Shown piece after piece: positions 34,447 to 51,893 of a stretch of 64,000 nt of DNA. A model generated the notes under the pieces. The model was not told where the DNA came from, searched no databases, and worked only from the letters and a program-made list of their open reading frames with translations. Origin of the DNA: Deltaproteobacteria bacterium. GTDB lineage: Bacteria; Chloroflexota; Dehalococcoidia; Dehalococcoidales; BS750m-G39. Position 1 is the first letter of the stretch; every line of letters starts with the position of its first letter. The position numbers and the translations under genes were made by a program. The stretch is from assembly GCA_030603275.1 (NCBI GenBank), contig JAUVYB010000005.1:13928-77927 (forward strand). The letters are read 5' to 3'.

Positions 34447-34474
34447 GGTATACGGCAACCGTTGGCCGTATACC
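34447..34474 (+). promoter_or_regulatory. Perfect 10-bp inverted repeat at the predicted transcript start (operator or 5' hairpin)
   Basis: GGTATACGGC-aaccgttg-GCCGTATACC, immediately followed by the AGGAG Shine-Dalgarno of the GTG-initiated ferredoxin gene. Confidence 0.45.
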
Positions 34475-34973: not shown

Positions 34974-35345
34974 TTGATGTCACATAACTGGGGACCGCAT
35001 TATATTGTTCCTTCAGAGGTGATGAAGAAATATTCGGGGAATGTTTTATTGCGGGAGGAGCTTGACGAGGAGCTGCTGGGCAAGGAGCTGGCGGAGATGG
35101 GTCTCACCGGGCCTATCGTGCGGATAACCAACCCCTGGTACTACCGCCCGAAGAGCGCCAGTACCTGGATTAAGATAGGGGAGTCCCGGGACAAGCAGGA
35201 TAACTTTTCGGTGCGCTGGGATACCAACGGCCTGGCGAACGGGCAGTACGAGATACTGGGGTTGATGCATGTTTTTGTCAAGAAGAACGGTGAGGAGACA
35301 GCTATCGCCCGGGAAAACGTGGTGGAAATTACCGTCGAGAATTGA
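34974..35345 (+). CDS. Hypothetical protein (C-terminal Ig-like beta-sandwich suspected)
   Basis: 123-aa ORF in operon context. No motif recognised. Confidence 0.45.
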   Translation: MMSHNWGPHYIVPSEVMKKYSGNVLLREELDEELLGKELAEMGLTGPIVRITNPWYYRPKSASTWIKIGESRDKQDNFSVRWDTNGLANGQYEILGLMHVFVKKNGEETAIARENVVEITVEN

Positions 35346-35374: not shown

Positions 35375-36001
35375 ATGATTGCCATAATAGATTATGGCGC
35401 CGGCAACCTGCGCAGCGTGGTTAACGCCGTCAGCCGCCTGGGCTATGAGGCCAAGGTTGTTAACCGCCCTGAAGAGGTTATTAGCGCCCGGGTGGTTATA
35501 CTGCCCGGGGTGGGGGCGGCGGCTGATACCATGGCTAACCTGCAGAAAACGGGGTTGGACAGCGCGGTTAAGCGCTATGTCGCTGAGGGGTGGCCATTCC
35601 TGGGGGTCTGCATCGGGATGCAGGTGCTGTTCGGCGGCACCGAAGAGGGCGGCTGGCATGAGTGCCTGGGCGTTATCCCCGGCGCGGTGCGCAGGTTTGC
35701 ACCGGGCTTAAAGGTTCCCCACATGGGCTGGAACCAGGTAAAGCAAAAGATTGCTCACCCCATCTTCGAGGGCATACCCGATGAAGCTAACTTTTATTTT
35801 GTCCACAGCTACTATGTTAAGCCGGAGGACGGGTCGCTGGTGGCCGGCGAGACCGAGTACGGCATCCCGTTCTGCAGTGTTGTAACTAAAGATAACCTGG
35901 TGGCCACCCAGTTTCACCCGGAGAAGAGTGGGGAGGTGGGGCTAAAAATTTACGATAATTTTATCAGGGTTGCCCTGGGAGCCAAAGCGGGCAGGCGGTA
36001 A
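35375..36001 (+). CDS. hisH: Imidazole glycerol phosphate synthase, glutaminase subunit
   Basis: 208 aa. IAIIDYGAGNLRSV, LGVCIGMQVLF (catalytic Cys), HMGWN, FYFVHSY, QFHPEKS. Confidence 0.93.
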   Translation: MIAIIDYGAGNLRSVVNAVSRLGYEAKVVNRPEEVISARVVILPGVGAAADTMANLQKTGLDSAVKRYVAEGWPFLGVCIGMQVLFGGTEEGGWHECLGVIPGAVRRFAPGLKVPHMGWNQVKQKIAHPIFEGIPDEANFYFVHSYYVKPEDGSLVAGETEYGIPFCSVVTKDNLVATQFHPEKSGEVGLKIYDNFIRVALGAKAGRR

Positions 36002-36004
36002 GAA

Positions 36005-37351
36005 ATGGCGATAGCAGAGAAAATAAAGTATTTGATTATCGGCAACTCGGCGGGTGGCATCGGCGCCGCCGAGGCCATCCGCGGGGTGGATAAGGCGGGG
36101 ACACTGGCTATCGTCTCCGACGAGCCCTACCCGGCCTACTCGCGGCCGCTTATCTCCGAGCACCTTTCCGAGGGGCGTTCTCTGGAGAGGATGCTCTACC
36201 GCCCGGCCGATTTCTACGAGCAGAATAAAATAAAAACCGTCTTCGGTGATACAGTGGCGCGAATTGATTTCGGTGGGCGTACCCTTGAGCTGGAAAGCGG
36301 CCGAACTATTGCCTGGCAGAAGCTGCTGCTGGCTACCGGCGGCTCACCTATCGTGCCCGGGATGGAGGGTAAAGATTTAAAGGGGGTTTTCACCTTTACC
36401 ACCCTTGATGATGCTAAAGCAATAGATAAGTTCCTGAAGCAGCGCCAGGGCAGGATAAAAGCGGTGGTCATCGGCGGGGGGCTTATCGGGGTGAGCGCCA
36501 CCGAAGCCCTGTTAAAGAGGGGGGTGGAGATCAGCATCGTCGAGATGAAGGACTGGGTTTTGAACACCATCCTTGATGAGGAGGCGGCGGCCCTGGAAGC
36601 GGCGGCTCTGAGCGGGGCTGGTGTTGACATAATAACCGGACATACCGTGGCTAAAATAAACAGCAGTCTGCTGGATGAGGTCAACGGCGTCAGCCTGGAT
36701 GATGGGCGGTCTATACGATGCGATATGGTTGTCGTCGCCATCGGAGTTACGCCGCGCCTTGACCTGGTGGCTGATAACGGGGTTAAGACCAACCGGGGCA
36801 TAATCGTTGACCGCCGTATGGCTACATCCGTACCCGGTGTCTATGCCTGCGGTGATGTTGCCGAGGCCTATGATTTCGTCTACGGGGAGAACCGGGTAAC
36901 GCCGGTCTGGCCCAACGCCTATACCGGCGGCCGGGTCGCCGGCCTGAATATGGCCGGTAAGAAGGCGGAATACGGGGGCGGGACGGCCATGAACGCCCTA
37001 AAGTACTTCGGGGTGAATATCCTTTCGGCGGGGATGGTGAACCCGCCCGATGACAGCTACGAAGTTATCAGCCAGAGGGGCGATGGTATCTATAAAAAAG
37101 TGATAATTAAAGACGGGAAGATACTGGGCATGGTCTTTGTCGGCGATATCGAGAAAGCGGGCATTATCTATAATCTAATGAAGGACGGGGTAAAGGTGGG
37201 GTCTTTTAAAGAAACGCTGGTTGCCGACGACTTCGGCCTTGCCTCTCTGCCGGAGAAAATCTGGCGTGCCCGGCTGGATATACCGGCTTCCGAGGAGGCT
37301 TCCATAGTGCCCCCGGTTGAGCCAGCCGAAGAAGAGGTCGTTGATGAATAG
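36005..37351 (+). CDS. FAD/NAD(P)-dependent pyridine nucleotide-disulfide-family oxidoreductase
   Basis: 448 aa. IIGNSAGGIGAAEA, second dinucleotide fold VIGGGLIGVSA, ACGDVAE. Confidence 0.8.
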   Translation: MAIAEKIKYLIIGNSAGGIGAAEAIRGVDKAGTLAIVSDEPYPAYSRPLISEHLSEGRSLERMLYRPADFYEQNKIKTVFGDTVARIDFGGRTLELESGRTIAWQKLLLATGGSPIVPGMEGKDLKGVFTFTTLDDAKAIDKFLKQRQGRIKAVVIGGGLIGVSATEALLKRGVEISIVEMKDWVLNTILDEEAAALEAAALSGAGVDIITGHTVAKINSSLLDEVNGVSLDDGRSIRCDMVVVAIGVTPRLDLVADNGVKTNRGIIVDRRMATSVPGVYACGDVAEAYDFVYGENRVTPVWPNAYTGGRVAGLNMAGKKAEYGGGTAMNALKYFGVNILSAGMVNPPDDSYEVISQRGDGIYKKVIIKDGKILGMVFVGDIEKAGIIYNLMKDGVKVGSFKETLVADDFGLASLPEKIWRARLDIPASEEASIVPPVEPAEEEVVDE

Positions 37352-37376
37352 CCTTGCTTTTAAGGAGAAGCTTTAA

Positions 37377-38512
37377 GTGAGAGATATCGGGCGGATAAAT
37401 AACCCTAACCAGGATAACAAGATAATCGACGCCTGCTCTATATTCGGGGCGATGGATACCACCGGTAAACGGTTTTCCGGCGAGGGCGTCATCAGGGCTA
37501 TCGCCAACATGCACGACCGTGGCAACGGGCTGGGCGGCGGCTTTGCCGTCTACGGCCTCTACCCCGATTACGCCAACCAGTACGCCTTTCACGTGATGTT
37601 CCTGAGCCAGCAGGGCAGGCAGGAGACGGAGGCGTTTTTAAAGGATAACTTTGACCTTATCGAGCAGCAGGAGGTGCCCACCCGGCTGGCGCCGCCGATT
37701 AAGCACCCGCCGCTGGTACGGCGCTATTTTCTTGACATAAATAAAAATAAGCCAGGCAAGCAGTCCGGGGATGACTATGTATTAGAAAAGGTTATGACCA
37801 TAAATACCAAATTATCCGACAGCTTTGTCTTTTCCAGCGGTAAGAACATGGGGGTATTTAAGGGGGTGGGCTACCCCGAGGAGATAGCCGATTACTTCTG
37901 TTTGGAGCAGTACCAGGGCTACCTCTGGACGGCTCACGGGCGGTTCCCCACCAATTCCCCCGGCTGGTGGGGTGGTGCGCACCCGTTCTGTATCCTGGAC
38001 TGGACGGTTATTCACAACGGTGAGATTTCGTCCTACGGTATTAATCGCAGGTATTTGGAGCAGTTCGGCTACCAGTGTACCATGCAGACCGATACCGAGG
38101 TGGTGGCCTACGCCGTCGACCTGCTGATGCGCCAGCACCACCTGCCGCTGGAGGTAGTGGCCAAAATCCTGGCACCGCCTTTCTGGAATACTATCGGGCG
38201 CCTGCCGAAAGAGGAGCAGAAGCTGATGCTGGCTCTGCGCCAGGTGTACGGCAGCCTGCTCCTGAACGGGCCCTTCGCCGTAATTATCGCCCACCACGGT
38301 GAGATGATTGGGCTGACCGATCGTATACGCTTAAGGCCGCTGACGGTGGGGGAGAAGGGTGATATGCTCTATCTATCTTCTGAGGAATCGGCAATCCGCC
38401 TGATAGCCCCGGAGCTGGATAAGGCCTGGATACCGATGGGTGGCCAGCCGGTAGTCGGCAGGCTGAAGGTGGGGGCTAAAAATAGAGTAACCGCCGGGGG
38501 GGGCGAAATAAG

Positions 38513-38519
<7 letters not shown>
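37377..38519 (+). CDS. Glutamate synthase, class II (Ntn) glutamine amidotransferase domain protein (archaeal-type split GltS)
   Basis: 380 aa. Catalytic Cys in [10 protein letters not shown] follows a short propeptide. HGRFPTNS and HNGEISSYG-type motifs. GTG start. Confidence 0.82.
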
Positions 38520-39289
<770 letters not shown>

Positions 39290-39293
39290 GACG

Positions 39294-40799
39294 ATGAAGA
39301 CCTATATAGCACCCAAGTTTTTAGTAAAGCGAGACCCGGAGCGCTGTATCCAGTGCCAGGTTTGTGTTAACCAGTGCAGCTTTGACGCTAATTACTATGA
39401 TGCCGAGGACAACGAGGTCAGGAGCCGCGAGGAGAACTGCGTCGGCTGCCACCGCTGCGAGGTATTTTGCCCCACCCAGGCGCTGACCATCAGCCGCAAC
39501 CCGCAGGAATATCGCGAGAACTATAACTGGCGCCCAGAGGTTATCGAAGATATCTTAAGGCAGGCCGAGACCGGCGGGGTGCTGCTGACCGGCATGGGTG
39601 ACGACAAGGGACAGAAGATTTACTGGGACCACCTGCTGCTCAATGCCAGCCAGGTGACCAACCCTTCTATAGACCCCCTCCGTGAGCCGATGGAGCTTGT
39701 TACCTGGCTGGGGCGGAAACCCGACCGGCTGGAGCTTGATGATAAATCACGGAATCTGAAAACGGAGCTGGCTCCCCAGGTGAGGCTGGAGGTGCCGGTG
39801 ATGTTTGCCGCCATGTCCTACGGGGCGGTGAGTCTTAATGTGCACCGGTCTCTGGCCCGGGCGGCTACCGAGATGGGTACCCTCTGGAACACCGGTGAGG
39901 GGGGACTGCACCCCAGCCTGTATAAATACGGCGATAACACCATTGTCCAGGTGGCTTCCGGGCGCTTCGGCGTGCAGGCCGACTACCTGAACGCGGGAAG
40001 GGTGGTCGAGATAAAAATCGGGCAGGGAGCCAAGCCGGGAATCGGCGGGCATTTGCCCGGGGAGAAGGTAAGCGCCGAGGTATCGTTAACCAGGATGATT
40101 CCCCAGGGCACCGACGCTATATCGCCGGCGCCGCAGCATGATATTTACTCTATTGAGGACCTGGCGCAGCTTATATACGCTTTGAAAGAGGCGACCAACT
40201 ACACCAAGCTGATATCGGTCAAGATTGCCGCCGTCCATAACGCGGCGGCTATCGCCAGCGGCATGGTGCGGGGCGGCGCCGATATTATCGTCCTTGACGG
40301 GCTCCGGGGCTCTACCGGTGCGGCGCCAAAGGTTATCCGTGACAATGTGGGCATTCCCATCGAGCTGGCGTTGGCCGCGGTTGACAGCCGTTTACGTCAG
40401 GAGGGCATACGCAACCAGGCCTCTATAGTGGTCTCCGGCGGCATCAGAAACAGCGGCGACGTGGCCAAGGCCATCGCCCTGGGGGCTGACGCCGTCTATA
40501 TCGGCACGGCGGCCCTCATTGCCCTGGGCTGCCATGTCTGCCAGCAGTGCCATACCGGCAAGTGCGCCTGGGGGCTCTGCACCACCGACCTCCGCCTGAC
40601 CAAGCGGGTCAATCCCGACATCGGCGCCCGAAGGCTGGCTAATTTGCTGCGGGGCTGGAGCATCGAGCTAAAAGATATACTGGGTGGGCTGGGGGTCAAC
40701 GCCATCGAGAGCCTGCGGGGCAACCGCCTGCACCTGAGAGGTGTTGGCTTAAGCGATACCGAGCTGGAAATTCTGGGAGTAGGGATGGCAGGGAGCTAG
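39294..40799 (+). CDS. Glutamate synthase FMN-binding/catalytic domain protein with N-terminal 2x[4Fe-4S] motif
   Basis: 501 aa. CIQCQVCVNQC and CVGCHRCEVFC. QGAKPG.GG.LPG.KV, GG.GA.P, CHTGKC-type 3Fe-4S region. Confidence 0.9.
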   Translation: MKTYIAPKFLVKRDPERCIQCQVCVNQCSFDANYYDAEDNEVRSREENCVGCHRCEVFCPTQALTISRNPQEYRENYNWRPEVIEDILRQAETGGVLLTGMGDDKGQKIYWDHLLLNASQVTNPSIDPLREPMELVTWLGRKPDRLELDDKSRNLKTELAPQVRLEVPVMFAAMSYGAVSLNVHRSLARAATEMGTLWNTGEGGLHPSLYKYGDNTIVQVASGRFGVQADYLNAGRVVEIKIGQGAKPGIGGHLPGEKVSAEVSLTRMIPQGTDAISPAPQHDIYSIEDLAQLIYALKEATNYTKLISVKIAAVHNAAAIASGMVRGGADIIVLDGLRGSTGAAPKVIRDNVGIPIELALAAVDSRLRQEGIRNQASIVVSGGIRNSGDVAKAIALGADAVYIGTAALIALGCHVCQQCHTGKCAWGLCTTDLRLTKRVNPDIGARRLANLLRGWSIELKDILGGLGVNAIESLRGNRLHLRGVGLSDTELEILGVGMAGS

Positions 40800-40801
40800 C
40801 A

Positions 40802-41560
40802 ATGGCGAGCAGAAAGAACTCAGTGGTTAAGATGGATGCCGGCGGCGTTTACTACCGGGAGCTTAACGCTAACTTAAGAAAAGCCGTTACCAACAGCACC
40901 CGCCGCATCGAGCTCCGCAACGTCTACGGGCAGAGGTACATCGGCACCGATTTGAATAAGCCGGTGGAGATTGAGATATTCGGCACTCCCGGTAACGACC
41001 TGGGGGCCTTTATGAACGGGCCCAGGATTATCGTCTGGGGCAACGCCCAGGACGGCTGCGGCAATACCATGAACGAGGGCGAAATAGTAATCCACGGCCA
41101 CGCCGGAGATATTATCGGGCTATCGGCGCGGGGTGGCAAAATCTTTGTCCGCGATGACGTGGGCTACCGGGCGGGCATCCATATGAAGGAGTACCGGGAT
41201 CGTAAGCCGGCGCTGGTTATCGGGGGCACCGCCCAGGACTTTGTCGGCGAGTATATGGCCGGCGGTGTGCTGATCCTGCTGGGCCTGAATTTAAAAGAGG
41301 GCGAGAGTCATAAAGCCAATTTTATCGGCACAGGCATGCACGGCGGCGTTATCTACCTGAGGGGAAGCGTCGAGGAGTACCAGCTGGGTAAGGAGGTAGG
41401 CGTCGCCCAGCTGGAGGACGCCGACCGTCAGGTTCTTAAGCAGCTGGTCGGCGAGTTCGCCGCCCACTTCGGCTACGATGCTGGCGAGATACTGAAGCAT
41501 AAGTTTATAAAGCTGTTTCCCCGCTGGCTGCGGCCTTACGGCCGGCTCTACGCCTATTGA
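40802..41560 (+). CDS. Glutamate synthase GXGXG-motif domain protein (GltB domain 3-like)
   Basis: 252 aa. Repetitive beta-helix pattern: G.AG...G..M.GG.I.V.G.AGD..G. Confidence 0.85.
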   Translation: MASRKNSVVKMDAGGVYYRELNANLRKAVTNSTRRIELRNVYGQRYIGTDLNKPVEIEIFGTPGNDLGAFMNGPRIIVWGNAQDGCGNTMNEGEIVIHGHAGDIIGLSARGGKIFVRDDVGYRAGIHMKEYRDRKPALVIGGTAQDFVGEYMAGGVLILLGLNLKEGESHKANFIGTGMHGGVIYLRGSVEEYQLGKEVGVAQLEDADRQVLKQLVGEFAAHFGYDAGEILKHKFIKLFPRWLRPYGRLYAY

Positions 41561-41575
41561 TGGGGGTGGACAATA

Positions 41576-42241
41576 TTGCGGCTGCTGATGATAGCTCAAG
41601 AAACCGGGGCGTTGGCCGAGTTGCGTTCCGAAATCGCTCGTAACGGCTTTGCCTGTGACATAGTTCCCCATGGTGAGGGGGTGCTTGAGGAGATAACCGT
41701 CCAACGCCCTGATTTAGTCCTGGTTGAGATGGGCGGTAACCTGCCCGCTGACGAGGTAGGGGAGCTCGTCCGGAGGCTGAAAGGGGAAAGGCGCCTGCCG
41801 GTTATAGCCCTGCTCCCCGGAGATACGCTGGACAGCCTTAACGGCAGTCTTGATGTTGATGATTTTATCACCAGCCCCTGCGATGCGCATGAGCTGGTCT
41901 TGAGAGCCAGGCGAGTTTTAAGCCGGGCCCGGAACATTGACGGCGGCGAGCTAATCAAGTGTGACGGCTTGTTGATAGACCTGGCCAAGTGTGAGGTGAT
42001 CCTGGAGGGCGAAATAATTGAGCTTACCTTTAAAGAGTATGAGATGCTAAAGTTCCTGGCCAGCCACCGGGGCCGTGTCTATAGTCGTGAAGCCCTGCTT
42101 AACAAGGTCTGGGGCTATGACTACTACGGTGGCGACAGGACGGTGGATGTGCATGTGCGGAGACTGAGAAGCAAGATTGAGGACGCAAAGCACACCTTCA
42201 TCGAGACGGTGAGAAATATCGGCTACCGCTTTAAGGTGTAA
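41576..42241 (+). CDS. OmpR/PhoB-family DNA-binding regulator with a degenerate (pseudo-)receiver domain; GlnR-like
   Basis: 221 aa, TTG start. The winged-helix half is conventional (LTFKEYEMLKFL...VWGYDYYGGDRTVDVHVRRLRSKI...VRNIGYRF). In the receiver half, QE replaces the acidic DD pair, Glu51 sits where the phospho-Asp should be (DLVLVEMGG), no Thr/Ser is seen, and DDFITSP replaces DDY.TKP. Confidence 0.8.
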   Translation: MRLLMIAQETGALAELRSEIARNGFACDIVPHGEGVLEEITVQRPDLVLVEMGGNLPADEVGELVRRLKGERRLPVIALLPGDTLDSLNGSLDVDDFITSPCDAHELVLRARRVLSRARNIDGGELIKCDGLLIDLAKCEVILEGEIIELTFKEYEMLKFLASHRGRVYSREALLNKVWGYDYYGGDRTVDVHVRRLRSKIEDAKHTFIETVRNIGYRFKV

Positions 42242-42282: not shown

Positions 42283-43872
42283 ATGTGCGGAATTGCTGGT
42301 TGTTACGGAGCTAAGGATGTTGAGACGGTAAACCGTATGCTCGATGCCATGGAGCACCGGGGGCCCGATGACCGTGGCGTCTATAACTTCAGTGGTGCTG
42401 TTTTAGGCCATACCAGGCTGTCCATCGTTGATGTGGCTGGCGGTCACCAGCCGATACTGACCGCCGACGGCCAAACAGGCATAATCTGCAACGGCGAAAT
42501 CTATAACTTTCGCCAGATTAGAGAGGGCCTTCCCCCCAGCTATGAGTTCACCACCGACTCCGACACCGAGGTCATACTGCACCTTTATCGGGAGAAGGGG
42601 CCGGAGTGCGTAAAAGAGCTGGACGGCATGTTTGCCTTCGCCATCATGGACGGCGGCAAATTATTGCTGGCCCGCGACTCAATCGGCATCAAGCCCCTAT
42701 ATTACGGCTATGCCGACGGCCGGTTTTATTTCTCCTCCGAGTTGGGTGCCATGACCCTGGCCGGAGTAGATGAGGTTCATGAGTTTCCGGCCGGCTCTTA
42801 CTACACGCCAGAGAGCGGCTTCGTTGAGTATTATAAGCTACCGGAGATTCGGGAGCACCTTCTGGCCGATTTTGATGAAGCCAGCCGCCTAATTAGGGAG
42901 ACCTTTATAGCAGCGGTTAAGAAGCGGCTGCTTTCCGATAAGCTGATTCACGTTGGCTCCTTCTGCAGCGGTGGCTTGGACAGCAGCCTGGTGGCGGCTA
43001 TCGCCGCCGAGGAAATCCCCAACCTGCACACCTTTGTCGTGGGCATGATAGACGCCGACGGTAACGAGAGTGACGACCTCAAGGCGTCCCGGATTGCCGC
43101 CGAACATATAGGCTCGACGCACCACGAGCTGATTTTCACCGAGGACGAGTACTACGAGGCACTGCCAATAGTTATCAAGAAGCTGGAGAGCTACGACCCG
43201 TCGCTGGTACGCTGTGCCGTACCCTGCTACTTCACCTGCAAGCTGGCCGCCGACTATGTCACCGTAGTGCTCACCGGTGAAGGCGCCGACGAAATCTTCA
43301 CCGGCTATCACTATATGAAGCACTATCCCACCGATGAGCTTAATGAGGAGGCGATGCGCTGTATCGGCAACCTGCATAACATCAACCTCCAGCGCGCCGA
43401 CCGCATGGGCATGCTCTTTAGCCTGGAGCTGAGAGTGCCTTTCCTGGATACGGCCATGATTGACCTGGCCACGAAGATTCCGCCCGAGCTTAAGATAAGG
43501 CAGTCCGAGGACGGCGAGAGCATGATTGAGAAGTGGATCCTGCGCAAGGCCTTCGAGGGGACGGGCTATCTGCCCGAAGAAATACTCTGGCGTTACAAGG
43601 TCCAGTACACCCAGGGGGCCGGATGCGAGAGCCTGGGGGAGAAGCTGGCCGAGTCGGAAGTGAGCGAGGATGAGTACCAGCGCATCAAAGCGGAGAACCC
43701 CGATGCCGTAATTAACAGCCGCGAGGCGGCCTACTACTTTAAGATATTCCGCGAGTTTCATCCGCAGGATTCGGTGCTCGGTTCTATCGGTATCTGGACC
43801 GGCTTTGACTTCGCTGAGGAAAGGGAGCAGGTGCAGGGAACAGTCGACGGTGACCTCAAACACGTGCGATAG
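42283..43872 (+). CDS. asnB: Asparagine synthase (glutamine-hydrolysing)
   Basis: 529 aa. N-terminal MCGIAG nucleophile, SGGLDSS PP-loop. Confidence 0.93.
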   Translation: MCGIAGCYGAKDVETVNRMLDAMEHRGPDDRGVYNFSGAVLGHTRLSIVDVAGGHQPILTADGQTGIICNGEIYNFRQIREGLPPSYEFTTDSDTEVILHLYREKGPECVKELDGMFAFAIMDGGKLLLARDSIGIKPLYYGYADGRFYFSSELGAMTLAGVDEVHEFPAGSYYTPESGFVEYYKLPEIREHLLADFDEASRLIRETFIAAVKKRLLSDKLIHVGSFCSGGLDSSLVAAIAAEEIPNLHTFVVGMIDADGNESDDLKASRIAAEHIGSTHHELIFTEDEYYEALPIVIKKLESYDPSLVRCAVPCYFTCKLAADYVTVVLTGEGADEIFTGYHYMKHYPTDELNEEAMRCIGNLHNINLQRADRMGMLFSLELRVPFLDTAMIDLATKIPPELKIRQSEDGESMIEKWILRKAFEGTGYLPEEILWRYKVQYTQGAGCESLGEKLAESEVSEDEYQRIKAENPDAVINSREAAYYFKIFREFHPQDSVLGSIGIWTGFDFAEEREQVQGTVDGDLKHVR

Positions 43873-43902: not shown

Positions 43903-43940
43903 GTAACATAAATTTAACCCCCCTGTAATCTGTTGGAAAC
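43903..43940 (+). promoter_or_regulatory. Four pentamer direct repeats at 11-bp periodicity upstream of amt (GlnR-box-like a-n6-b-n6-a-n6-b)
   Basis: GTAAC-ataaat-TTAAC-ccccct-GTAAT-ctgttg-GAAAC. Ends 47 nt upstream of the amt ATG. Confidence 0.45.
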
Positions 43941-43986
43941 AATCGCCTGTTAAGCTGGAGATAGTTGAAGCATTGGGGAGTTAAAG

Positions 43987-45393
43987 ATGACTATGGACTT
44001 GAGAAGCAAAGTGATGAGGATAACAATAAGAGGGGTGTTAACTTTTAGCCTTGTCTGTCTGTTGTGGCTGGCATGGGCGGCAATGAAAGGTAGTATAGCT
44101 TTGGCTGCTGATCCCACCGGACTAGGAGGCACGGCAGATGCGGCGATAGACTATGTGTGGATATTAGTCTGTGCCTTCCTGGTGATGTTTATGCAGCCAG
44201 GGTTTGCTATGGTCGGGGCCGGATTCACCCGGGCTAAGAATGCCGGGAACTTTATGACTAAAAACTTGATGGATTTTGTGATTGGCTCACTAACTTTCTT
44301 CTTCGTGGGTTATGCCCTGATGATGGGCGGCGACTGGCACGGTCTCTGGGGCACAGAAGGCTGGTTCATGCTTGGTGAGTATTATGATGTTGATGCTTAT
44401 CTCAATATGTTCTGGATGCTGGTCTTCTGTGCTACTGCTGCTACCATTGTCGCCGGTGCTGTCGCCGAGCGGCTGAAGTTTAAGGCTTATCTTATCTATA
44501 GTGTAGTAGTCAGTGCCATTATTTATCCCATCTATGGTCACTGGGTGTGGGGAGGAGGCTGGCTTTCCAGTCTGCCGCTCGGGCTAGGCGCTCTGGACTT
44601 TGCCGGTTCGGGGGTAGTTCATGCCGTTGGTGGTCTCGTTGGCTTAGCTGGAGCAATCGTTCTCGGTCCGAGGTTTGGCAGATATGATAAGAGCGGAAAG
44701 CCACGGGCAATCCCCGGGCATAGCATAACGCTGGCTACCCTGGGAGTCTTTATCCTGTGGTTTGGCTGGTTTGGCTTTAACCCGGGCAGTACTTGTGATG
44801 CGCACCATCTGAGAATATCGGTTATCGCCGTCAACACCAATCTGGCAGCGGCTGCCGGTGGACTGGCCGCACTCCTTGTAGCCTACTGGAAGACAAGGAA
44901 ATGGGATATAGGTATGCTTATCAATGGCATATTAGCCGGACTTGTCGCCATTACTGCCCCCTGCGCCTGGGTAGAGGGTTGGGCAGCAATTGTGATTGGT
45001 CTTATCGGTGGTGTGCTAATGTATGCCAGTGTCAAGTTCCTTGAAGCTAAGAGGATAGATGACCCGGTGGGGGCAGTGAGTGTGCACGGTGCTTGTGGTC
45101 TGTGGGGTCTGCTTAGCGTCGGTTTCTTTGCCGATGGAACCTATGGTAATTACTCAGTTGACGCACCATATGTCACCGGTCTATTTTACGGGGGGGGAGG
45201 TGAGCAGTTACTCGCCCAGCTTATCAGTGTAGTAGTGGTTGCCGTTTGGGCATTCGGTATGGGCTACCTAACTTTTAAGCTAATGAATAAGGCTTTTGGC
45301 ATTCGTGTATCCCCTGAAGAGGAGCTGCAGGGATTGGATATCCCCGAGCATGGCGCACCAGCTTATCCCGACTTTATTACTAAGCAAAGTTAG
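43987..45393 (+). CDS. amt: Ammonium transporter
   Basis: 468 aa. FMQPGFAMV, D.AG..VVH..GG, W.GW.GFN, multiple TM helices. Confidence 0.95.
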   Translation: MTMDLRSKVMRITIRGVLTFSLVCLLWLAWAAMKGSIALAADPTGLGGTADAAIDYVWILVCAFLVMFMQPGFAMVGAGFTRAKNAGNFMTKNLMDFVIGSLTFFFVGYALMMGGDWHGLWGTEGWFMLGEYYDVDAYLNMFWMLVFCATAATIVAGAVAERLKFKAYLIYSVVVSAIIYPIYGHWVWGGGWLSSLPLGLGALDFAGSGVVHAVGGLVGLAGAIVLGPRFGRYDKSGKPRAIPGHSITLATLGVFILWFGWFGFNPGSTCDAHHLRISVIAVNTNLAAAAGGLAALLVAYWKTRKWDIGMLINGILAGLVAITAPCAWVEGWAAIVIGLIGGVLMYASVKFLEAKRIDDPVGAVSVHGACGLWGLLSVGFFADGTYGNYSVDAPYVTGLFYGGGGEQLLAQLISVVVVAVWAFGMGYLTFKLMNKAFGIRVSPEEELQGLDIPEHGAPAYPDFITKQS

Positions 45394-45429
45394 GTCAGCG
45401 GCAATATGGAATAAGGGGGCGTGAAGAAA

Positions 45430-45768
45430 ATGAAGAAGATAGAGGCGATAATTAGGGTAGAGAAATTTGAGGAGGTGAAGGAAGCTTTGAAGGAATTGGG
45501 CTACCCTGGAATGACCAAGACCCTCGTTGAGGGTCATGGCAAGCAGAAAGGGCTTAAGCAACAGTTTCGCGGTACAACATTTGAAGTAGAAATGGTGCCC
45601 AAGTTAAAACTGGAAATTGTAGTGCTTGACGAAGATGTATCTAGGACACTCGCGGCTATCGTCAGAGGTGCTAGGACTGATGATGTCGGTGACGGCAAGA
45701 TTTTTGTCCTGCCGGTGGAGCATGCGGTGCGCGTCCGCACCGGTGATATAGACGAAAATGCCGTCTAG
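45430..45768 (+). CDS. glnB: P-II family nitrogen regulatory protein
   Basis: Start at MKKIEAIIR gives the canonical 112 aa. GDGKIFV. The T-loop reads GHGKQKGLKQQFRGTTF, so Phe sits where enterobacterial P-II has the uridylylated Tyr51. Confidence 0.93.
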   Translation: MKKIEAIIRVEKFEEVKEALKELGYPGMTKTLVEGHGKQKGLKQQFRGTTFEVEMVPKLKLEIVVLDEDVSRTLAAIVRGARTDDVGDGKIFVLPVEHAVRVRTGDIDENAV

Positions 45769-45880
45769 GCAGGTTGCGAGGTGTAGCAGTATGTAGTACA
45801 TTGATGATAATAAGTACATTGATTGTAAAATAGCTAAATTCTATAAATAAAAATAAGTATTACCAAAGGAGGTGGTAACA

Positions 45881-47224
45881 ATGGCCAACAGGAGCAGGGA
45901 AGAGGCTAATGATTATATTTTAAAGATGGCCAAGGAGCATGATGTTAAGTTTATCCGGCTGTGGTTTACCGATATACAGGGTATACTAAAGAGCTTTGCC
46001 ATCACCGTGGAAGAGCTGGAAGGAGCCATGACCGAAGGGATGGGCTTTGACGGGTCGTCAATTCAGGGATTTGCCCGGATTGATGAGAGTGATATGGTGG
46101 CCCTGCCTGACCCGGATACCTTTCAGCTGCTGCCCTGGAGGCCGCGTGAGCACAATGCCGTGGCCCGCATGTTCTGTGATGTCTTAAGGCCGGGGGGCGA
46201 GCCTTTTGAGGGTGACCCCAGATTTGTCCTTAAGAGGAACCTGAAGCGGGCGGCCGACCTGGGCTATACTTTTTATGTGGGACCGGAACTGGAGTTCTTC
46301 TATTTTCAGGATTCCGAGAGCACCGTGCTGCTGGACCAGGGAGGCTACTTTGATTTGACTCCGCGGGATGCCGCTATCGAGATGAGGAAGGATACCGTTC
46401 TGGACCTGGAGGATATGGGTATCGGCGTTGAGTATTCCCACCACGAAGTCGCCCCCAGCCAGCATGAAATAGACATGAGGTATACCGATGCCCTGACCAT
46501 GGCCGATAACGTGATGACCTATCGCCTTGTTGTCAAAGAGGTAGCCTTCAGGCATGGCGTCTATGCCACCTTTATGCCCAAGCCCGTCTTCGGCATCAAC
46601 GGCAGCGGCATGCACGTTCACCAGTCGCTTTTCAATGGCGACCGGAACGCCTTCTTTGATAAAGCTGATGAATACCATCTGTCCAAGATAGCCAGGAGCT
46701 ATATAGCCGGACTGCTGGCACACGCTCCCGAGATTACGGCGGTGACCAACCAGTGGGTCAACTCTTACAAGCGGCTGGTTCCCGGTTACGAGGCGCCGGT
46801 ATACCTGTCTTGGGCGCGGCGCAACCGCTCTGACCTTATCCGAGTCCCGGAGTACCGGCCGGGCAGGGAAAAGGCGACCAGACTTGAATACCGCTCTCCC
46901 GACCCGGCCTGCAACCCCTATCTGGCCTTCAGTGTCATGCTGGCCGCCGGGCTGGAGGGAATTGAGAAGGGCCTGGAGCCGCCTCCGCCGGTAGAAGAGA
47001 ATGTCTATGAGATGTCCGTAGAGGAAAGGCAGAAGCGGGGCATAGGCACCCTGCCGGCCAGCCTGCTGGAAGCCATACTGTTAGCCGAGAAGAGTGAGCT
47101 AGTGCGCAAGGCTCTTGGCGACCATGTTTTTGAGGCTTTCATCCAGAACAAGAAGATAGAGTGGGGAAATTACCGCGCTCAGGTAACCGAATACGAGCTG
47201 AAGAAGTACCTGCCCATATTATAA
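45881..47224 (+). CDS. glnA: Glutamine synthetase, type I
   Basis: Start at MANRSREE (AAGGAGG lies 8 nt upstream). FTD..G, GFDGSS, GPE.EFF, HHEVA..Q.E, NGSGMH.H.S. Confidence 0.95.
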   Translation: MANRSREEANDYILKMAKEHDVKFIRLWFTDIQGILKSFAITVEELEGAMTEGMGFDGSSIQGFARIDESDMVALPDPDTFQLLPWRPREHNAVARMFCDVLRPGGEPFEGDPRFVLKRNLKRAADLGYTFYVGPELEFFYFQDSESTVLLDQGGYFDLTPRDAAIEMRKDTVLDLEDMGIGVEYSHHEVAPSQHEIDMRYTDALTMADNVMTYRLVVKEVAFRHGVYATFMPKPVFGINGSGMHVHQSLFNGDRNAFFDKADEYHLSKIARSYIAGLLAHAPEITAVTNQWVNSYKRLVPGYEAPVYLSWARRNRSDLIRVPEYRPGREKATRLEYRSPDPACNPYLAFSVMLAAGLEGIEKGLEPPPPVEENVYEMSVEERQKRGIGTLPASLLEAILLAEKSELVRKALGDHVFEAFIQNKKIEWGNYRAQVTEYELKKYLPIL

Positions 47225-47244
47225 AGTCTGAGAGGGGGGCCGCT

Positions 47245-48999
47245 ATGCCGCAGTTGGGTGATGCCCGCAGGCTGCGCATCGGGATGGCTCAGCTCAACGC
47301 TACCGTGGGTGATTTTGCCGGCAACCGGCGGAAAATCCTGAGTGCCATTAAAGAAGCCAGGTCTCTGGGAGTGGATTTGCTCGCTCTTCCCGAACTGGCT
47401 ACATGCGGCTATCCCCCCGAAGACCTGCTTTTTAAGCCCAAGTTTATCGCCGAAAACCTGCGTTCGCTGGAAAAGGTGGTCGAGGCTTCATCGGGGTTAG
47501 CTGTCGTCGTCGGCTTTGTTGATGCCAGAGAGGACATCTATAACGCGGCGGCCGTAATTCACGACGGCAGGCTAGCCGGCGTCTATCACAAGATATTTCT
47601 GCCCAACTACGGCGTCTTTGATGAGAACCGCTACTTCCGCGCCGGCAACCAATGCCCGGTCTATACTATCGGCGGCATCGGGCTGGGCATCAACATCTGT
47701 GAGGACATCTGGTACGAGGATGGGCCGGCTACCGCCCAGGCCAATGCTGGAGCCGAGGTTATCGTTACCATAAGCGCTTCGCCCTATCACTTCGGCAAGG
47801 TGGATTTGCGGGAAAGGATGATAGTATCCCGCGCCGTGGACAACGTGGCTATCTTCACTCACACCAACCTGGTGGGAGGGCAGGATGAGCTGGTCTTCGA
47901 CGGCAACAGTATAGCCGTGGATGAGAAGGGGCAGCTGCTGGCCCGGGGCAGGCAGTTTGAGGAGGACCTGATAGTGGCCGACCTGGATGTTGAATCCGTC
48001 TTCCGGGCGCGTCTTCACGACCCCAGGTGGCGCAAAGAGCCACCGCCTGCCGGGGAGCCAGGGTGTCCCACCCCCAAAATAGTGGTATCCGAGGCGCCGT
48101 TCGAGCTGAAGAAACCGGCCTTACCCCCCAGACAGGTTGAGCTGCGGGGGTCGCCCGGCGAGGTCTATGATGCGCTGGTGCTGGGCACCGGTGACTATGT
48201 GCACAAGAACGGCTTTGAGAAGGTATTAATTGGTCTTTCCGGGGGGTTGGACTCGAGCCTGGTGGCGGCTATTGCCGTTGACGCCTTGGGCAAGTCCAAC
48301 GTGGTGGGGGTGGCTATGCCTTCCCGGTACTCTTCCCCCGGCAGCCTTTCCGACGCCGGGTTGCTGGCCAAAAACCTGGGCATAAAGCTGCTGACCATTC
48401 CAATCGAGAAGATTTTTAAAGCCTATCTGGATACGCTGGCCGGGGCTTTTAAGGAGACGGAACCCAATGTAGCCGAGGAGAATATCCAGGCCCGCATCAG
48501 GGGCAATATACTGATGGCGCTGTCCAATAAGTTCGGCTGGCTGGTGCTGCCCACCGGTAACAAAAGCGAGATGGCCACCGGCTACACCACGCTGTACGGG
48601 GACATGGCCGGCGGCTTTGCCGTGATAAAGGATGTGCCCAAGACAATGGTCTATGAGCTGGCCGGATACCGTAACCGGCTTTCCGGTTATGAGCTGATAC
48701 CGGCTACTATTATGGATAAGCCTCCTTCGGCGGAGCTGAAGCCGGAGCAAAAGGATATTGACACCCTACCTCCATATGAGCTGCTTGACCCGGTGCTGAC
48801 GGCATATGTCGAGGAGGATAAGAGCGTGGAGCAGATAATCGCCCTGGGCAACGATGAAAAAGTGGTAAAGCGAGCGGCCCGGCTGGTGGACGCCAGCGAG
48901 TACAAGCGCCGCCAGGCGCCGCCGGGGGTTAAGATAACCCCCAGAGCATTTGGCAGGGACAGGCGGCTGCCCATTACCAACCGCTTCAAGGGTTCATAA
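47245..48999 (+). CDS. nadE: Glutamine-dependent NAD+ synthetase (nitrilase-type glutaminase + NAD synthetase domains)
   Basis: Start at MPQLGDARRLRIGMAQLN, just after the glnA stop. CN-hydrolase half (ELATCGYPPEDL, ICED). Synthetase half with SGGLDSS. Confidence 0.92.
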   Translation: MPQLGDARRLRIGMAQLNATVGDFAGNRRKILSAIKEARSLGVDLLALPELATCGYPPEDLLFKPKFIAENLRSLEKVVEASSGLAVVVGFVDAREDIYNAAAVIHDGRLAGVYHKIFLPNYGVFDENRYFRAGNQCPVYTIGGIGLGINICEDIWYEDGPATAQANAGAEVIVTISASPYHFGKVDLRERMIVSRAVDNVAIFTHTNLVGGQDELVFDGNSIAVDEKGQLLARGRQFEEDLIVADLDVESVFRARLHDPRWRKEPPPAGEPGCPTPKIVVSEAPFELKKPALPPRQVELRGSPGEVYDALVLGTGDYVHKNGFEKVLIGLSGGLDSSLVAAIAVDALGKSNVVGVAMPSRYSSPGSLSDAGLLAKNLGIKLLTIPIEKIFKAYLDTLAGAFKETEPNVAEENIQARIRGNILMALSNKFGWLVLPTGNKSEMATGYTTLYGDMAGGFAVIKDVPKTMVYELAGYRNRLSGYELIPATIMDKPPSAELKPEQKDIDTLPPYELLDPVLTAYVEEDKSVEQIIALGNDEKVVKRAARLVDASEYKRRQAPPGVKITPRAFGRDRRLPITNRFKGS

Positions 49000-49075: not shown

Positions 49076-50086
49076 ATGGAGAAACTGATGGCGGAACAGG
49101 TTGTCGGCTCCGATGCCGAAGGTAAGCTAATATCCATCCTTAAAATCTTAAGCGAGTCATCAGAAACACTGGGGTCAATCACTATCGCCCGGCGGCTTGC
49201 GGGCGAGGGGGTTTTCTTGAGTGAGAGGGCGGTGAGGTATCACCTGAGGATAGCCGACGAGCGCGGCTATACCCAGCCGGCAGGCCGGGACGGGCGGATG
49301 ATTACTCCCAAAGGGCGGCAGGAGGTTAAGGAGGCCTTAGCCCCGCAGCACCTGGGTTTCGTGCGCGAGAAGCTGGAGATGCTGGCCTACCAGACCACCT
49401 TCGACCCGGTAAAACGCAGCGGCCAGTTGCCCATAAATACGTCACTTGTTGATAAGGATAAGTTCAAAAAGGCGCTTTCGGCGATGAAGGACGCCTTTAA
49501 GGCCGGGATTTGCGTAAGCGAGCTGGTGGCCACGGCGTCAGAGGGAGAGAAGCTGGGGGCGGCGGTTGTGCCCGCTGGTAAAATTGGTTTTGCCACCGTT
49601 TGCAGCGTGGTGACCAACGGTGTGCTGCTAAAGTCTGGTGTCCCTATGGAATTCAGGTTTGGCGGCGTGCTCGAAATCAGAAATTCCAAGCTGAGGCGAT
49701 TTGTGGCCATAATTGACTATGCCGGTACCTCCGTCGACCCCTCCGAGCAGTTTGTCCGGGCTAAGATGACCAGCGTTGGCGAAGCCTCCCGGACGGGGAG
49801 TGGCAAGATACTGGGCGTTTTCAGGACGATACTGGCGCCGGCCAGGGAAATCTTCGAGGAGAAGGTAGCCCTGCTTAAAGAGGTGGGCATCGGCGGTGTC
49901 TATGCCGTGGGCGATACCAGTGAGCCGCTCTGCCAGATTCCGGTAGTCCTGAACCGGATTGGCATTGTTCAGTTGGGTGGTCTTAATCCGGTGGCGGCCG
50001 CCGTTGAGGCTGGAATCGAGATTGAAAACGTGGCCGAGAACGGTTTGATTGATTTCCAGGAGCTGCATAGTTTCTGGGAGCTTTAG
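49076..50086 (+). CDS. nrpR: NrpR-type nitrogen regulator (winged HTH + one NRD/DUF128 domain)
   Basis: 336 aa. LISILKILSES...LGSITIARRL...LSERAVRYHLRIADERGY....GR.GR.ITPKG..E, then LGFV..K.E.L.Y.TTFD, matching my recollection of methanogen NrpR. Confidence 0.72.
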   Translation: MEKLMAEQVVGSDAEGKLISILKILSESSETLGSITIARRLAGEGVFLSERAVRYHLRIADERGYTQPAGRDGRMITPKGRQEVKEALAPQHLGFVREKLEMLAYQTTFDPVKRSGQLPINTSLVDKDKFKKALSAMKDAFKAGICVSELVATASEGEKLGAAVVPAGKIGFATVCSVVTNGVLLKSGVPMEFRFGGVLEIRNSKLRRFVAIIDYAGTSVDPSEQFVRAKMTSVGEASRTGSGKILGVFRTILAPAREIFEEKVALLKEVGIGGVYAVGDTSEPLCQIPVVLNRIGIVQLGGLNPVAAAVEAGIEIENVAENGLIDFQELHSFWEL

Positions 50087-50098
50087 TTACGGCGTTAT

Positions 50099-51190
50099 TT
50101 AGCCGGGTATATTTACTACCAGAGTTGTCCCTTTGCCTGGTGTTGACTTTACTTCAAGAGTGCCACCCAACAGCCGAGCCCGCTCCCGCATTCCAGCCAG
50201 TCCCAGCTTCCCGCTGCGGGGGAGGTCGTCAACGCCTCCCCGCAGTTCAAAGCCCTGGCCGTTGTCGGTTATGGTCACCTTGACTTCGTCTCCGCCGAAC
50301 TCCATTGCCACCTGCGCCTCAGAGGCGTGGGCATGCCGCCTGATATTGTTGAGCGCCTCCTGAACTATGCGGAAGAGCAGTAGCTCAACTTCAGGCGTGA
50401 AACGCCTTTCTCCGCCGAGTATCTTTAGTTCGGCATCTATTCCGTCGGACTCTTGCAAGCCCTTGACCAATGACCTAACTGCCGGGATTAAGCCTAAATC
50501 GTCCAGCAGGGACGGGCGCAGGTCTTGAACGAAGCGCTGCATACTCTGCAGCCCGCGATTGAGCTGGGTCTGCAGGTCTTTGAGGAACAGGACCTCATTG
50601 GAAGCGAAGCCATGCTTCTTCCTGATGAAGTTATCCAGTTGACGCGAAAGAGAACTCAGCACCTGAGCCGTATCATCATGAAGCTCCCGGGCAATACGTT
50701 TCCGCTCCTCCTCCTGAGCCTTGGTTATCTGCTGTAGATGGTGGCGCAGGTTTTCTTCGGCACGCTTTCGCTCGGTGGCGTCTTCCAGGGTCTCGATGGC
50801 GCCGATTATCTTTCCGGCTTTATCTCTGATGGGGCTGGCGGTAAAGTGAAGCCACCTTCCGTTTTTGCCGAGGTCTAGGAAGAAGTCTTCGGCTTCATAG
50901 GCGCCGTCAAGCAACCGGGATTTTTTACACATGCCTTGATAATATGTCTCAATTTCGTTTTCCCGGGCTCCGTCCACCATTAAATCGGCCATAGTCGGCC
51001 TTTTTTCGCTGTAGAATGCCCGCCACTGCTCATCGGTGTCGATTATCTTGTCCCTTTTTAAACCGGTAAGGGCTTCAATGGCTATGTTCCAGTAGATAAC
51101 CCGGTGCTGATTATTGATGACAAACGAGGGAATAGAAGAGCCATCAATAATCTTAGCCAGCATTTCCGAGCCCAGTAGACTTTGAGCCAT
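50099..51190 (-). CDS. Sensor histidine kinase (PAS + HisKA_3 + HATPase_c), cytoplasmic
   Basis: 363 aa. H-box ARELHDDTAQ, N-box EALNNIRRHA, G-boxes DNGQGF and GLAGMRERA. Confidence 0.85.
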   Translation of the reverse strand: MAQSLLGSEMLAKIIDGSSIPSFVINNQHRVIYWNIAIEALTGLKRDKIIDTDEQWRAFYSEKRPTMADLMVDGARENEIETYYQGMCKKSRLLDGAYEAEDFFLDLGKNGRWLHFTASPIRDKAGKIIGAIETLEDATERKRAEENLRHHLQQITKAQEEERKRIARELHDDTAQVLSSLSRQLDNFIRKKHGFASNEVLFLKDLQTQLNRGLQSMQRFVQDLRPSLLDDLGLIPAVRSLVKGLQESDGIDAELKILGGERRFTPEVELLLFRIVQEALNNIRRHAHASEAQVAMEFGGDEVKVTITDNGQGFELRGGVDDLPRSGKLGLAGMRERARLLGGTLEVKSTPGKGTTLVVNIPG

Positions 51191-51227
51191 AGATATTACC
51201 CCGCTATCTCAACTCAATAAAGGGGAT

Positions 51228-51893
51228 TCAAGGCAGCTCTTCCAGAGTGAACCAGCCTTTTCTCAGGCCGTACAGCACTGCCTCGGTGCGGGAGCCGACT
51301 CCCAGTTTATTGAAGATAGTCCTCAGGTGACCCTCAACGGTGCGGTTGCTCAGGTGAAGTTTATCGGCGATGTTCTTATTGGTCATACCCTTGGCGGCCA
51401 GCTTGAGGATGTCTGCCTCACGGTTGCTGAGGTGATCGGAGGGTCTTTCCAGACCCCGCGTCTTGCCCGGCAGTTTAAAGTAATTCATGACCTTGCGGGC
51501 GACTATGGGGTCGAGGACGGGCTCACCCTTATAGACCGCCCGGATGGCGCGGATGAGTTCATCTCCGCTGACATTCTTTAACAGGTAACCGGCGGCGCCA
51601 ACCTTGAGCAGGGCGAAGACGTATTCGTCATCGTCGTAGGCGCTTAAGATGAGCACTGCTGTGCGGGGACTTATTAGCTTGATTTGCCGGGTGGCTTCGA
51701 TACCATTGAGCTTGGGCATGGCGATGTCCATGATGATAATATCGGGTTTCAGGTCGGTGGTCATCTGTACCGCTTCCTCGCCATCGCTGGCTTCGCCTAT
51801 AACCTTAACACCCTTCTCGTCTTCTATAAGACGGCGGATACCCTGCCGTGTTATCACATGGTCTTCAGCCAGAAGTACGTTTATACTGCTCAT
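51228..51893 (-). CDS. NarL/LuxR-family response regulator (canonical receiver)
   Basis: 221 aa. LAEDH, IIIMDIAMP (phospho-Asp), ILSAY, YLLKN. C-terminal HTH LSNREADILKLAAKGMTNKNIADKL. Confidence 0.9.
   Translation of the reverse strand: MSSINVLLAEDHVITRQGIRRLIEDEKGVKVIGEASDGEEAVQMTTDLKPDIIIMDIAMPKLNGIEATRQIKLISPRTAVLILSAYDDDEYVFALLKVGAAGYLLKNVSGDELIRAIRAVYKGEPVLDPIVARKVMNYFKLPGKTRGLERPSDHLSNREADILKLAAKGMTNKNIADKLHLSNRTVEGHLRTIFNKLGVGSRTEAVLYGLRKGWFTLEELP

Follow-up and report, generated by a model that had tools for sequence, protein, structure and literature searches.

What reads the phased repeat that precedes an ammonium-transporter gene in an uncultured member of the Dehalococcoidales (Chloroflexota), and does the reader switch the gene on or off? 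The element in question lies in a 64,000-nucleotide stretch of contig JAUVYB010000005.1 – called the window here, at its full length – and consists of four pentamers upstream of amt, which is followed by the P-II gene glnB. The array is real, far above chance and deeply conserved in register. We read it as the operator of an activator-dependent amt–glnB promoter, driven by a GlnR-like orphan regulator encoded shortly upstream, and put the probability of this reading, which is drawn from sequence comparison, at roughly 80%.

The array reads GTAAC-ataaat-TTAAC-ccccct-GTAAT-ctgttg-GAAAC on the forward strand (43903-43940), with spacers of 6 nucleotides (nt) each and a period of exactly 11 base pairs (bp), and ends 47 nt before the amt start codon (ATG, 43987). 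Its parts and the genes behind it are given below, with counts from 18 orthologous sites in related genomes and with promoter positions that assume an inferred transcription start about 7 nt after the -10 element.

43903-43907, forward strand: pentamer 1, GTAAC, a1-like; about -60 to -56; G/T-T-A-A-C in 18/18 orthologous sites.
43914-43918, forward strand: pentamer 2, TTAAC, in the b1 position; about -49 to -45; T 15/18, T 17/18, A 17/18, A 18/18, C 15/18.
43925-43929, forward strand: pentamer 3, GTAAT, a2-like; about -38 to -34; G 15/18, T 14/18, A 18/18, A 18/18, T 15/18.
43936-43941, forward strand: pentamer 4 with its trailing A, GAAACA, b2-like; about -27 to -22, downstream of the -35 position.
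43948-43956, forward strand: inferred extended -10 element TGtTAAGCT (TG 43948-43949, hexamer TAAGCT 43951-43956), exactly 10 nt after pentamer 4.
43987-45393, forward strand: amt, 468 amino acids, the first gene behind the array (Pfam Ammonium_transp, 8e-131); ribosome-binding site GGGGAG at 43975-43980.
45421-45768, forward strand: glnB/glnK, encoding P-II (Pfam P-II, 2e-28); 27-nt gap to amt, with which it is probably co-transcribed.

Pentamer by pentamer, the consensus of the orthologous sites (GTAAC/TTAAC/GTAAT/GAAACA) is the window sequence, and the trailing A is present in 18/18 sites, in a column that was not used for site selection. The loose pattern [GT][AT]AA[CT], repeated four times at 11-bp phasing, matches once in the window on both strands and in none of 500 first-order Markov windows. 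A weight matrix built from the 18 orthologous sites, with the window site left out, scores the array at 52.2 bits; the next independent match in the window reaches 10.6 bits and none of 300 Markov windows scores above 20.6 bits, the highest value among them, so that the weight-matrix scan finds this array as the only one of its kind in the 64 kb. Isolated two-pentamer pairs number seven in the window (three of them within the array) against 5.1 +/- 2.3 expected, which adds no further sites, and an Rfam scan of the window returned two tRNAs only, with no RNA element at the amt promoter or at that of the glutamate-synthase-type (glt) operon upstream.

Conservation extends to the gene partners of the array, as seen in related genome and metagenome contigs (the L-numbered loci) that were compared with the window. 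About 20 Dehalococcoidia genomes have the four-site array in front of amt; among 24 amt upstream regions, 16 hold a perfect four-pentamer array and three more match 19/20 positions. It keeps its register across Dehalococcoidia, Omnitrophota and Armatimonadota relatives while the spacers vary, and it stands before amt–P-II not only in the window but at over 100 loci. About 25 Dehalococcoidia contigs share the gene order regulator, amt, P-II, glnA, nadE, and variants of it occur in Omnitrophota and Armatimonadota. Across 1.25 Mb of related loci, matrix matches of at least 25 bits all lie on the coding strand, nearly all of them before amt or glnA or just after the regulator gene; the exception (L035, 28.2 bits) is 2.6 kb from the regulator gene and 1.7 kb from amt. 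Matrix-independent sites occur at second amt copies (L003, L004, L005, L010, L018) and at glnA (L027, L067).

Metagenome contigs scanned for the exact pattern GTAACn6TTAACn6GWAAYn6GAAACA gave matches in at least 120, where chance would give about 2 (a rough estimate for an assumed collection size). Of the 120 matches listed, at least 92 have amt as the next recognisable gene and 3-4 have glnA. Enough upstream sequence is present in 99 of the listed contigs, and in 72 of these a regulator homologue on the same strand ends no more than 2.5 kb before the array. Some apparent departures, in which the first open reading frame (ORF) behind the array is not amt, were set aside as off-frame calls over amt (L104, L118, L188) or truncated amt remnants (L088, L160, L190).

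Two further patterns concern the genes behind the array. Most relatives (L001-L022) have an Amt with only about 34% identity to that of the window, a minority (L023, L157, L171) one with 78-90%, and the array is the same throughout; the transporter gene has therefore been exchanged while the array was kept. As for glnA, it lies 20-40 nt behind the P-II gene in many relatives and hence on the same transcript, and other relatives give it a two- or four-pentamer box of its own with the same 10-nt spacing to the -10 element: the full array precedes it in L027, L067, L109, L124, L162 and L166, two-pentamer boxes in L008, L011, L017, L115, L175 and L195. The window glnA has a separate promoter, TTGATT-17-TATAAA, without pentamers.

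The position of the array relative to the promoter is as constrained as its sequence. No -35-like hexamer was found 16-18 nt upstream of the amt -10 hexamer, and pentamer 3 overlies the point where a -35 element would begin. A consensus sigma-70 scan likewise returned no complete promoter upstream of the amt start codon, a result consistent with activator dependence and not evidence against a promoter. By contrast, TAnnnT follows pentamer 4 at exactly 10 nt in 18/18 genome sites (T 18/18, A 17/18, T 17/18), again in columns not used for selection, and among 104 distinct sites in the listed metagenome matches the gap is 10 nt in 80, 11 nt in 11 and any other single length in at most 9. With a TAnnnT element fixed 10 nt behind it, the array thus takes the place of the -35 element.

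This arrangement closely resembles nitrogen control by GlnR in actinobacteria, as the preliminary description of this DNA had suggested. The GlnR box combines an a-site, gTnAc, and a b-site, GaAAc, 6 nt apart, typically as a1-b1-a2-b2 (PMC10235972, PMC3662644), and the Mycobacterium smegmatis motif obtained by chromatin immunoprecipitation sequencing is Gn2AC-n6-GnAACA, with essential A-C/T dinucleotides 9 nt apart (PMC3662644). The activation complex solved at the amtB promoter, on a scaffold from -64 to +13 with sites a1-b1-a2-b2 and a non-optimal -35, holds four protomers head-to-tail, and the b2 protomer, downstream of the -35 position, contacts the beta flap and sigma region 4 (PMC10235972). 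The window shares with these systems the four direct pentamers, the 6-nt spacers, the GTAAC core and the invariant A-C/T at 11-bp spacing; it fits the M. smegmatis motif down to the trailing A, its b2 GAAACA being an instance of GnAACA. The proximal site downstream of the -35 position, the poor -35 and the good -10 are those of the 8HIH complex, so that, with the transcription start placed by inference, the window promoter appears to match the solved GlnR activation complex in its geometry. The targets, amt–P-II and glnA, also correspond to the actinobacterial amtB-glnK-glnD and glnA. The differences are that the host is a Dehalococcoidales metagenome-assembled genome (MAG) and not an actinobacterium, and that b1 is TTAAC where actinobacteria have GaAAC.

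The preliminary description had reported four pentamers at an exact 11-bp period, 47 nt before amt, and had likened them to the a-n6-b-n6-a-n6-b architecture of GlnR boxes; coordinates and spacing hold on the sequence, and the array fits the published box definition, with b1 deviating in T for G. The sequence-based checks that it proposed point the same way: the chance frequency of the phasing (no four-pentamer array in 500 Markov windows, and 52.2 bits against at most 20.6), footprinting of the amt upstream regions of relatives (register kept across the three groups) and scans by weight matrix and by exact pattern (matches almost only at amt or glnA promoters or, for the matrix, just after the regulator gene).

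Which protein, then, would occupy the array? The preliminary description had named as candidate binder the regulator given below, and both the DNA contacts and the linkage counted above favour it. Its gene is the last but one of the glt operon, closely packed with its neighbours for translation.

41576-42241, forward strand: GlnR-like OmpR-family regulator, 221 amino acids (Trans_reg_C, 2.2e-28, residues 146-219).

The protein aligns end to end with OmpR-family models, and the closest genome contigs carrying it are Dehalococcoidales MAGs. In its DNA-binding domain, all 15 residues with which S. erythraea GlnR (SaeGlnR) contacts DNA, as listed in PMC10235972 – T149, K151, R169, W177, R186, T187, V190, H191, R193, R194, R196, T209, R211, N212 and Y215 – are identical in the window regulator, and in nearly all Dehalococcoidia, Omnitrophota and Armatimonadota relatives. 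RegX3 and MtrA keep 11/15 and canonical Firmicutes regulators 11-14/15, with N212 replaced by G or S; canonical regulators lack the Asn of TVRN(I/V)GY. The beta-flap contacts of M. tuberculosis GlnR (MtbGlnR) are mostly kept as well (H164, R167 and V168 identical; Y160F, F169Y). The top PDB sequence match is SaeGlnR 8hig (6e-32), with MtbGlnR 8hih at 3e-30. The GlnR structures deposited by PMC10235972 are 8HIH and 8HML; 8hig is unmentioned there and was taken to be S. erythraea GlnR on the ground that it and 8hml agree in every aligned residue of the DNA-binding domain, and the title of 8hih in the Foldseek listing is that of an M. tuberculosis initiation complex with GlnR. By fold, Foldseek matched OmpR-family regulators, with MtbGlnR (8hih_N) at rank 3, and does not discriminate GlnR from other OmpR-family proteins. 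NCBIfam holds no GlnR-specific model, the best matches (MtrA, PhoB) falling far under the cut-offs, and many homologues of the window regulator are labelled 'PhoP' in the JGI annotation.

The receiver half is far from canonical. Pfam Response_reg gives no match at E<=1e-3, and AlphaFold2 predicts a (beta-alpha)5 receiver fold for the N-terminal half (predicted local distance difference test, pLDDT, about 85), the DNA-binding domain being poorly modelled (mean pLDDT 68). All the residues of the phospho-pocket are replaced: the acidic pair by Gln8/Glu9, Asp by Glu51, Thr by Leu80 and Lys by Ser100. Glu51 is invariant in the close subfamily, and the wider family has Asp, Glu, Ala, Leu or His at this position; phosphorylation therefore cannot be required. 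Such a receiver cannot be phosphorylated in the normal way, and Glu51 with Gln8 is a natural counterpart of PhoB D10A/D53E, a mutant that PDB 2jb9 calls constitutively active in its title. The gene neighbours encode a GXGXG protein and asnB and no kinase; the sole kinase of the window (50099-51190) has a NarL-type regulator of its own as partner. Actinobacterial GlnR is in the same position, with no cognate kinase known (PMC10235972). The window protein thus shares with it the character of an orphan OmpR/PhoB protein with a non-canonical receiver, and differs in that MtbGlnR and SaeGlnR have a conserved Asp where the window regulator has Glu, and in that its gene sits inside a glutamate-synthase-type operon beside the target, in a cluster that also encodes NrpR. 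A separate observation concerns Cys27, Cys129 and Cys139, which are kept in the amt-linked Dehalococcoidia subgroup and not in the Omnitrophota, Armatimonadota or actinobacterial relatives; Cys129 lies near the position of the redox-switch Cys128 of RitR, an atypical streptococcal regulator among the fold matches.

On this evidence we call the regulator GlnR-like and probably homologous to actinobacterial GlnR, and strict orthology seems likely. In a neighbour-joining tree of residues 45-219, canonical regulators separate from atypical ones, including GlnR, in 199/200 bootstraps, on a small outgroup sample; receiver-only distances are saturated, and orthology is supported in the tree only when the receiver is included.

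In the mechanism that we propose, four protomers of the regulator, encoded 1.7 kb upstream, would bind the pentamers head-to-tail, with centres near -58, -47, -36 and -25. The array would stand in for the missing -35 element, the promoter-proximal protomer would sit between the -35 position and the -10 hexamer TAAGCT, and the bound protomers would recruit RNA polymerase and stabilise it there, as Mycobacterium GlnR does in its solved activation complex. We infer binding, activation rather than repression, the stoichiometry, the transcription start and the signal input alike, and the signal input is the weakest of these steps. Given the degenerate receiver and its likeness to the PhoB mutant, activity is proposed to follow the abundance of the regulator, which may in turn be set through the promoter of the operon that encodes it.

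34416-34444, forward strand: near-consensus promoter TTGACA-17-TATGAT of the operon from glt through the regulator gene to asnB.
34450-34471, forward strand: conserved palindrome ATACGGCAACCGTTGGCCGTAT, 5 nt after the glt-operon -10; putative repressor operator.
49076-50086, forward strand: NrpR homologue with a winged helix and NRD1/2 (Pfam NRD1_2, 4e-75; HTH_12, 5e-16).
Palindrome elsewhere: L001 3307, L003 4029, L009 2174, L020 3331, L130 1150, L198 2816; L004 2878 and 5136, L010 9843 and 15962, L082 287, L175 361.
Second NrpR paralogue elsewhere: L002 8946-10010, L009 8951-9949, L104 7657-8661, L117 2640-3644, L021 6776-7786, L017 4224-5222.

The palindrome, 22 bp with the consensus ATRCGGYAANCGNTTRCCGYAT across loci, begins some 5 nt behind the -10 element where strong sigma-70 promoters carry it. 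It is unique in the window and occurs 47 times in 1.93 Mb of related loci, mostly just after the -10 of glt, hisH or regulator promoters and in four contigs abutting pentamer 1 of the amt array. Its inverted-repeat core, GGYAA-N4-TTRCC, spans 14 bp and covers the inferred transcription start. The palindrome also holds inverted GTAAC-like pentamers, and one pair of symmetric changes was seen (ATGCGG...CCGCAT).

NrpR is a euryarchaeal nitrogen repressor released by 2-oxoglutarate, with the operator GGAAN6TTCC (PMC2723118, PMC4902934). The window homologue is full-length and stands directly after nadE, as do its orthologues in L001, L003, L004, L015, L019, L153 and others; related clusters encode one or two full-length homologues, one often immediately upstream of the regulator gene. 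In many clusters this latter place is taken by a second paralogue, 40-52% identical to that of the window, which has no such copy. Possibly the palindrome is the operator of the NrpR homologue: besides the full-length homologue in the cluster, it spans 14 bp as GGAAN6TTCC does and lies at a repressor position over the inferred start. The half-site sequence differs, the promoter context is that of bacterial sigma-70, and the assignment is a hypothesis. More tentatively still – we regard it as possible rather than probable – the two proteins may form a two-tier circuit, in which an archaeal-type, 2-oxoglutarate-sensing NrpR, acting on ATRCGGYAANCGNTTRCCGYAT at the promoters of the glutamate-synthase operon and the regulator gene, sets the abundance of a constitutively active GlnR-like regulator, which activates amt-glnB(-glnA); NrpR and the regulator would then meet at one promoter where the palindrome abuts pentamer 1.

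A second pentamer pair near this promoter is judged not to belong to the system.

34394-34409, forward strand: 'a-b pair' GTAATctggcaAAAAC, judged a chance or neutral match.

The preliminary description had seen the second a-b pair of the array recur at the 34.4-kb promoter. The sequence is there, with one mismatch in the pentamers, at a frequency expected by chance: its pattern matches the window 4 times where 2.5 matches are expected, and 26 of 100 shuffled sequences equal or exceed that number. The pair falls below every array threshold, precedes a promoter that needs no activator, and is kept only in the near-identical L130; in the close relatives L198 and L001 it is deleted, while the -35, the -10 and the palindrome stay. 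Some 100 nt upstream of the main glt-operon promoter there is also a second promoter-like element, TTGGCG-17-TACAAT with a TG (34318-34346, forward strand), within a block, tttaatgttacaatagtggctgtt, kept in L130, L198 and L001.

Several points weigh against the activator reading or its parts. RegX3 is a nearly equal PDB match of the regulator (8e-31). With the DNA-binding domain alone, the split between canonical and atypical regulators falls to 27/200 bootstraps, and long-branch attraction could explain why degenerate receivers group together. Actinobacterial GlnR uses its Asp for charge interactions in the homodimer, and this residue is Glu in the window regulator and variable across the family. 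No terminator was found after asnB, and read-through may also feed amt. The link between NrpR and the palindrome comes from co-occurrence and a partial resemblance to GGAAN6TTCC. Finally, the exact pattern also precedes phosphate-type genes in 3-4 unrelated contigs among the at least 120 matches.

This last point bears on the best placed of the alternatives, an improbable one all the same: that a different OmpR/PhoB-family regulator, for instance of PhoP or PhoB type, binds the array, as a Pho-box-like element or in phosphate–nitrogen cross-talk, and that the adjacent regulator has another target. The pho box of E. coli PhoB likewise consists of 11-bp direct repeats, read head-to-tail by winged-helix domains, replaces the -35 element at 10 bp from the -10, and works through sigma region 4; the window array resembles it in exactly these repeats in place of the -35 and in the 10 bp to the -10, and the PhoB–DNA structure 1GXP is among the PDB matches of the regulator. 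The boxes of Bacillus PhoP, four TT(A/T/C)ACA repeats at 11-bp phasing for two dimers, have a repeat unit nearly identical to TTAACA. The E. coli repeat, however, is CTGTCAT, with two protomers per box against four in a row here, and PhoB depends on phosphorylation by a cognate kinase and serves the phosphate regulon, not nitrogen genes. Bacillus PhoP, too, has a phosphorylatable receiver, PhoR as its partner and phosphate-starvation targets, whereas the window regulator has no phospho-pocket and lies among nitrogen genes. The contigs with the pattern at other genes (L141, L144, L150, L164) carry it before a PstS-like protein (PBP_like_2), an OlsB-like N-acyltransferase, a Na/Pi cotransporter (Na_Pi_cotrans) and a canonical OmpR-family response regulator; these arrays have the appearance of Pho boxes, with a repeat unit almost identical, that belong to unrelated organisms. 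Similar arrays can thus be read by other members of the OmpR family, and taken by itself the pattern is not diagnostic. The contact residues shared by canonical Firmicutes regulators speak for the same possibility, as does the competition of PhoP and GlnR at amtB in Streptomyces (PMC10235972). Yet in more than 90% of the cases listed the array tracks amt and glnA, not pst genes; it lies directly downstream of the atypical regulator in the 72 of 99 contigs already mentioned, an association kept even where amt has been replaced by a distant paralogue; and the window holds no other array and no pst or pho genes with one.

Less probable again is that the GlnR-like regulator binds as a repressor and occludes the amt -35 region when nitrogen is plentiful. 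The sites, which extend from -60 to -23, do overlap the footprint of the polymerase, and actinobacterial GlnR can repress, depending on position (PMC10235972, PMC3662644), but here there is no recognisable -35 to occlude and no stand-alone promoter in the consensus scan, and the strict 10-nt register from the last site to the -10 is the signature of OmpR/PhoB-type activator promoters and the geometry of the activating GlnR complex.

That the phasing is accidental or structural (phased A-tracts, curvature or an UP-like element read by no specific protein) is effectively refuted: AA dinucleotides phased at 11 bp can bend DNA, but the four-pentamer array is absent from the 500 random windows, bases other than A are conserved by position (G/T at position 1, C/T at position 5), as is the trailing A, and conservation holds across phyla though the spacers vary.

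The amt–glnB promoter is embedded in a nitrogen cluster, of which the remaining members are the following.

34485 onwards, forward strand: iron–sulphur (Fe-S) protein gene.
35375-41560, forward strand: genes for hisH-like, FAD oxidoreductase, GltB amidotransferase, hisF-like, GltB FMN and GXGXG proteins.
42283-43872, forward strand: asnB.
About 45881-47224, forward strand: glnA.
47161-48999, forward strand: nadE.

Between 35375 and 43872 the genes follow one another closely, no gap exceeding 41 nt. The hisH-like (35375-36001) and hisF-like (38513-39289) genes, of the imidazole glycerol phosphate synthase subunit types, are interleaved with those of a split archaeal-type glutamate synthase, an arrangement kept in most related loci. 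Between the Fe-S gene and hisH lies an unannotated ORF of 123 amino acids (MMSHNWGPHYIVPSEV...; 34974-35345, forward strand), which may encode a small protein travelling with the nitrogen cluster; in L013 an ORF between array and amt (MSYNWGPHFIVPSEV...) resembles it by eye. In one sublineage (L089, L094, L123, L151, L173, L176, L180, L012) the space between array and amt is taken by an acidic ORF of 60-77 amino acids (MSMDINQIIELWRGLSPRLA...) with no Pfam match. The glnA start is probably the ATG at 45881, with AAGGAGG 8 nt upstream, rather than the mechanically listed GTG at 45872. Its promoter region (45796-45823 and 45819-45847, forward strand) contains a direct repeat, GTACATTGAT twice at an 18-bp period, overlapping the inferred TTGATT-17-TATAAA; the repeat is kept in L130, L163 and L198 and present as a single copy in L153. 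Beside nrpR, on the reverse strand, a PAS-HisKA_3 histidine kinase and a NarL/GerE-type response regulator are encoded (50099-51893), for which no link to the pentamer array was found.

In the literature covered, OmpR-type GlnR nitrogen control was found described only for actinobacteria, and no report was found of an OmpR-type GlnR or of GlnR boxes in Chloroflexi, Chloroflexota, Dehalococcoides or Chloroflexus; coverage was incomplete, and an earlier description is possible. The same box architecture, promoter geometry and DNA contacts are now seen in uncultured Dehalococcoidia, and related arrays occur in Omnitrophota and Armatimonadota. This provides a testable regulon model for organisms beyond the reach of cultivation, together with a weight matrix by which amt and glnA promoters can be picked out of metagenomes with almost no false positives, and it indicates that the phospho-acceptor residue is dispensable in this regulator family. 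To our knowledge, the signal input of actinobacterial GlnR is not established; the linked NrpR genes and the palindrome suggest a route by which a nitrogen signal may reach an orphan GlnR-type regulator. If the two-tier circuit is true, such a regulator would have a concrete input signal, and OmpR-type GlnR control would be an old trait common to Actinomycetota, Chloroflexota, Armatimonadota and Omnitrophota, not one that arose within the actinobacteria.

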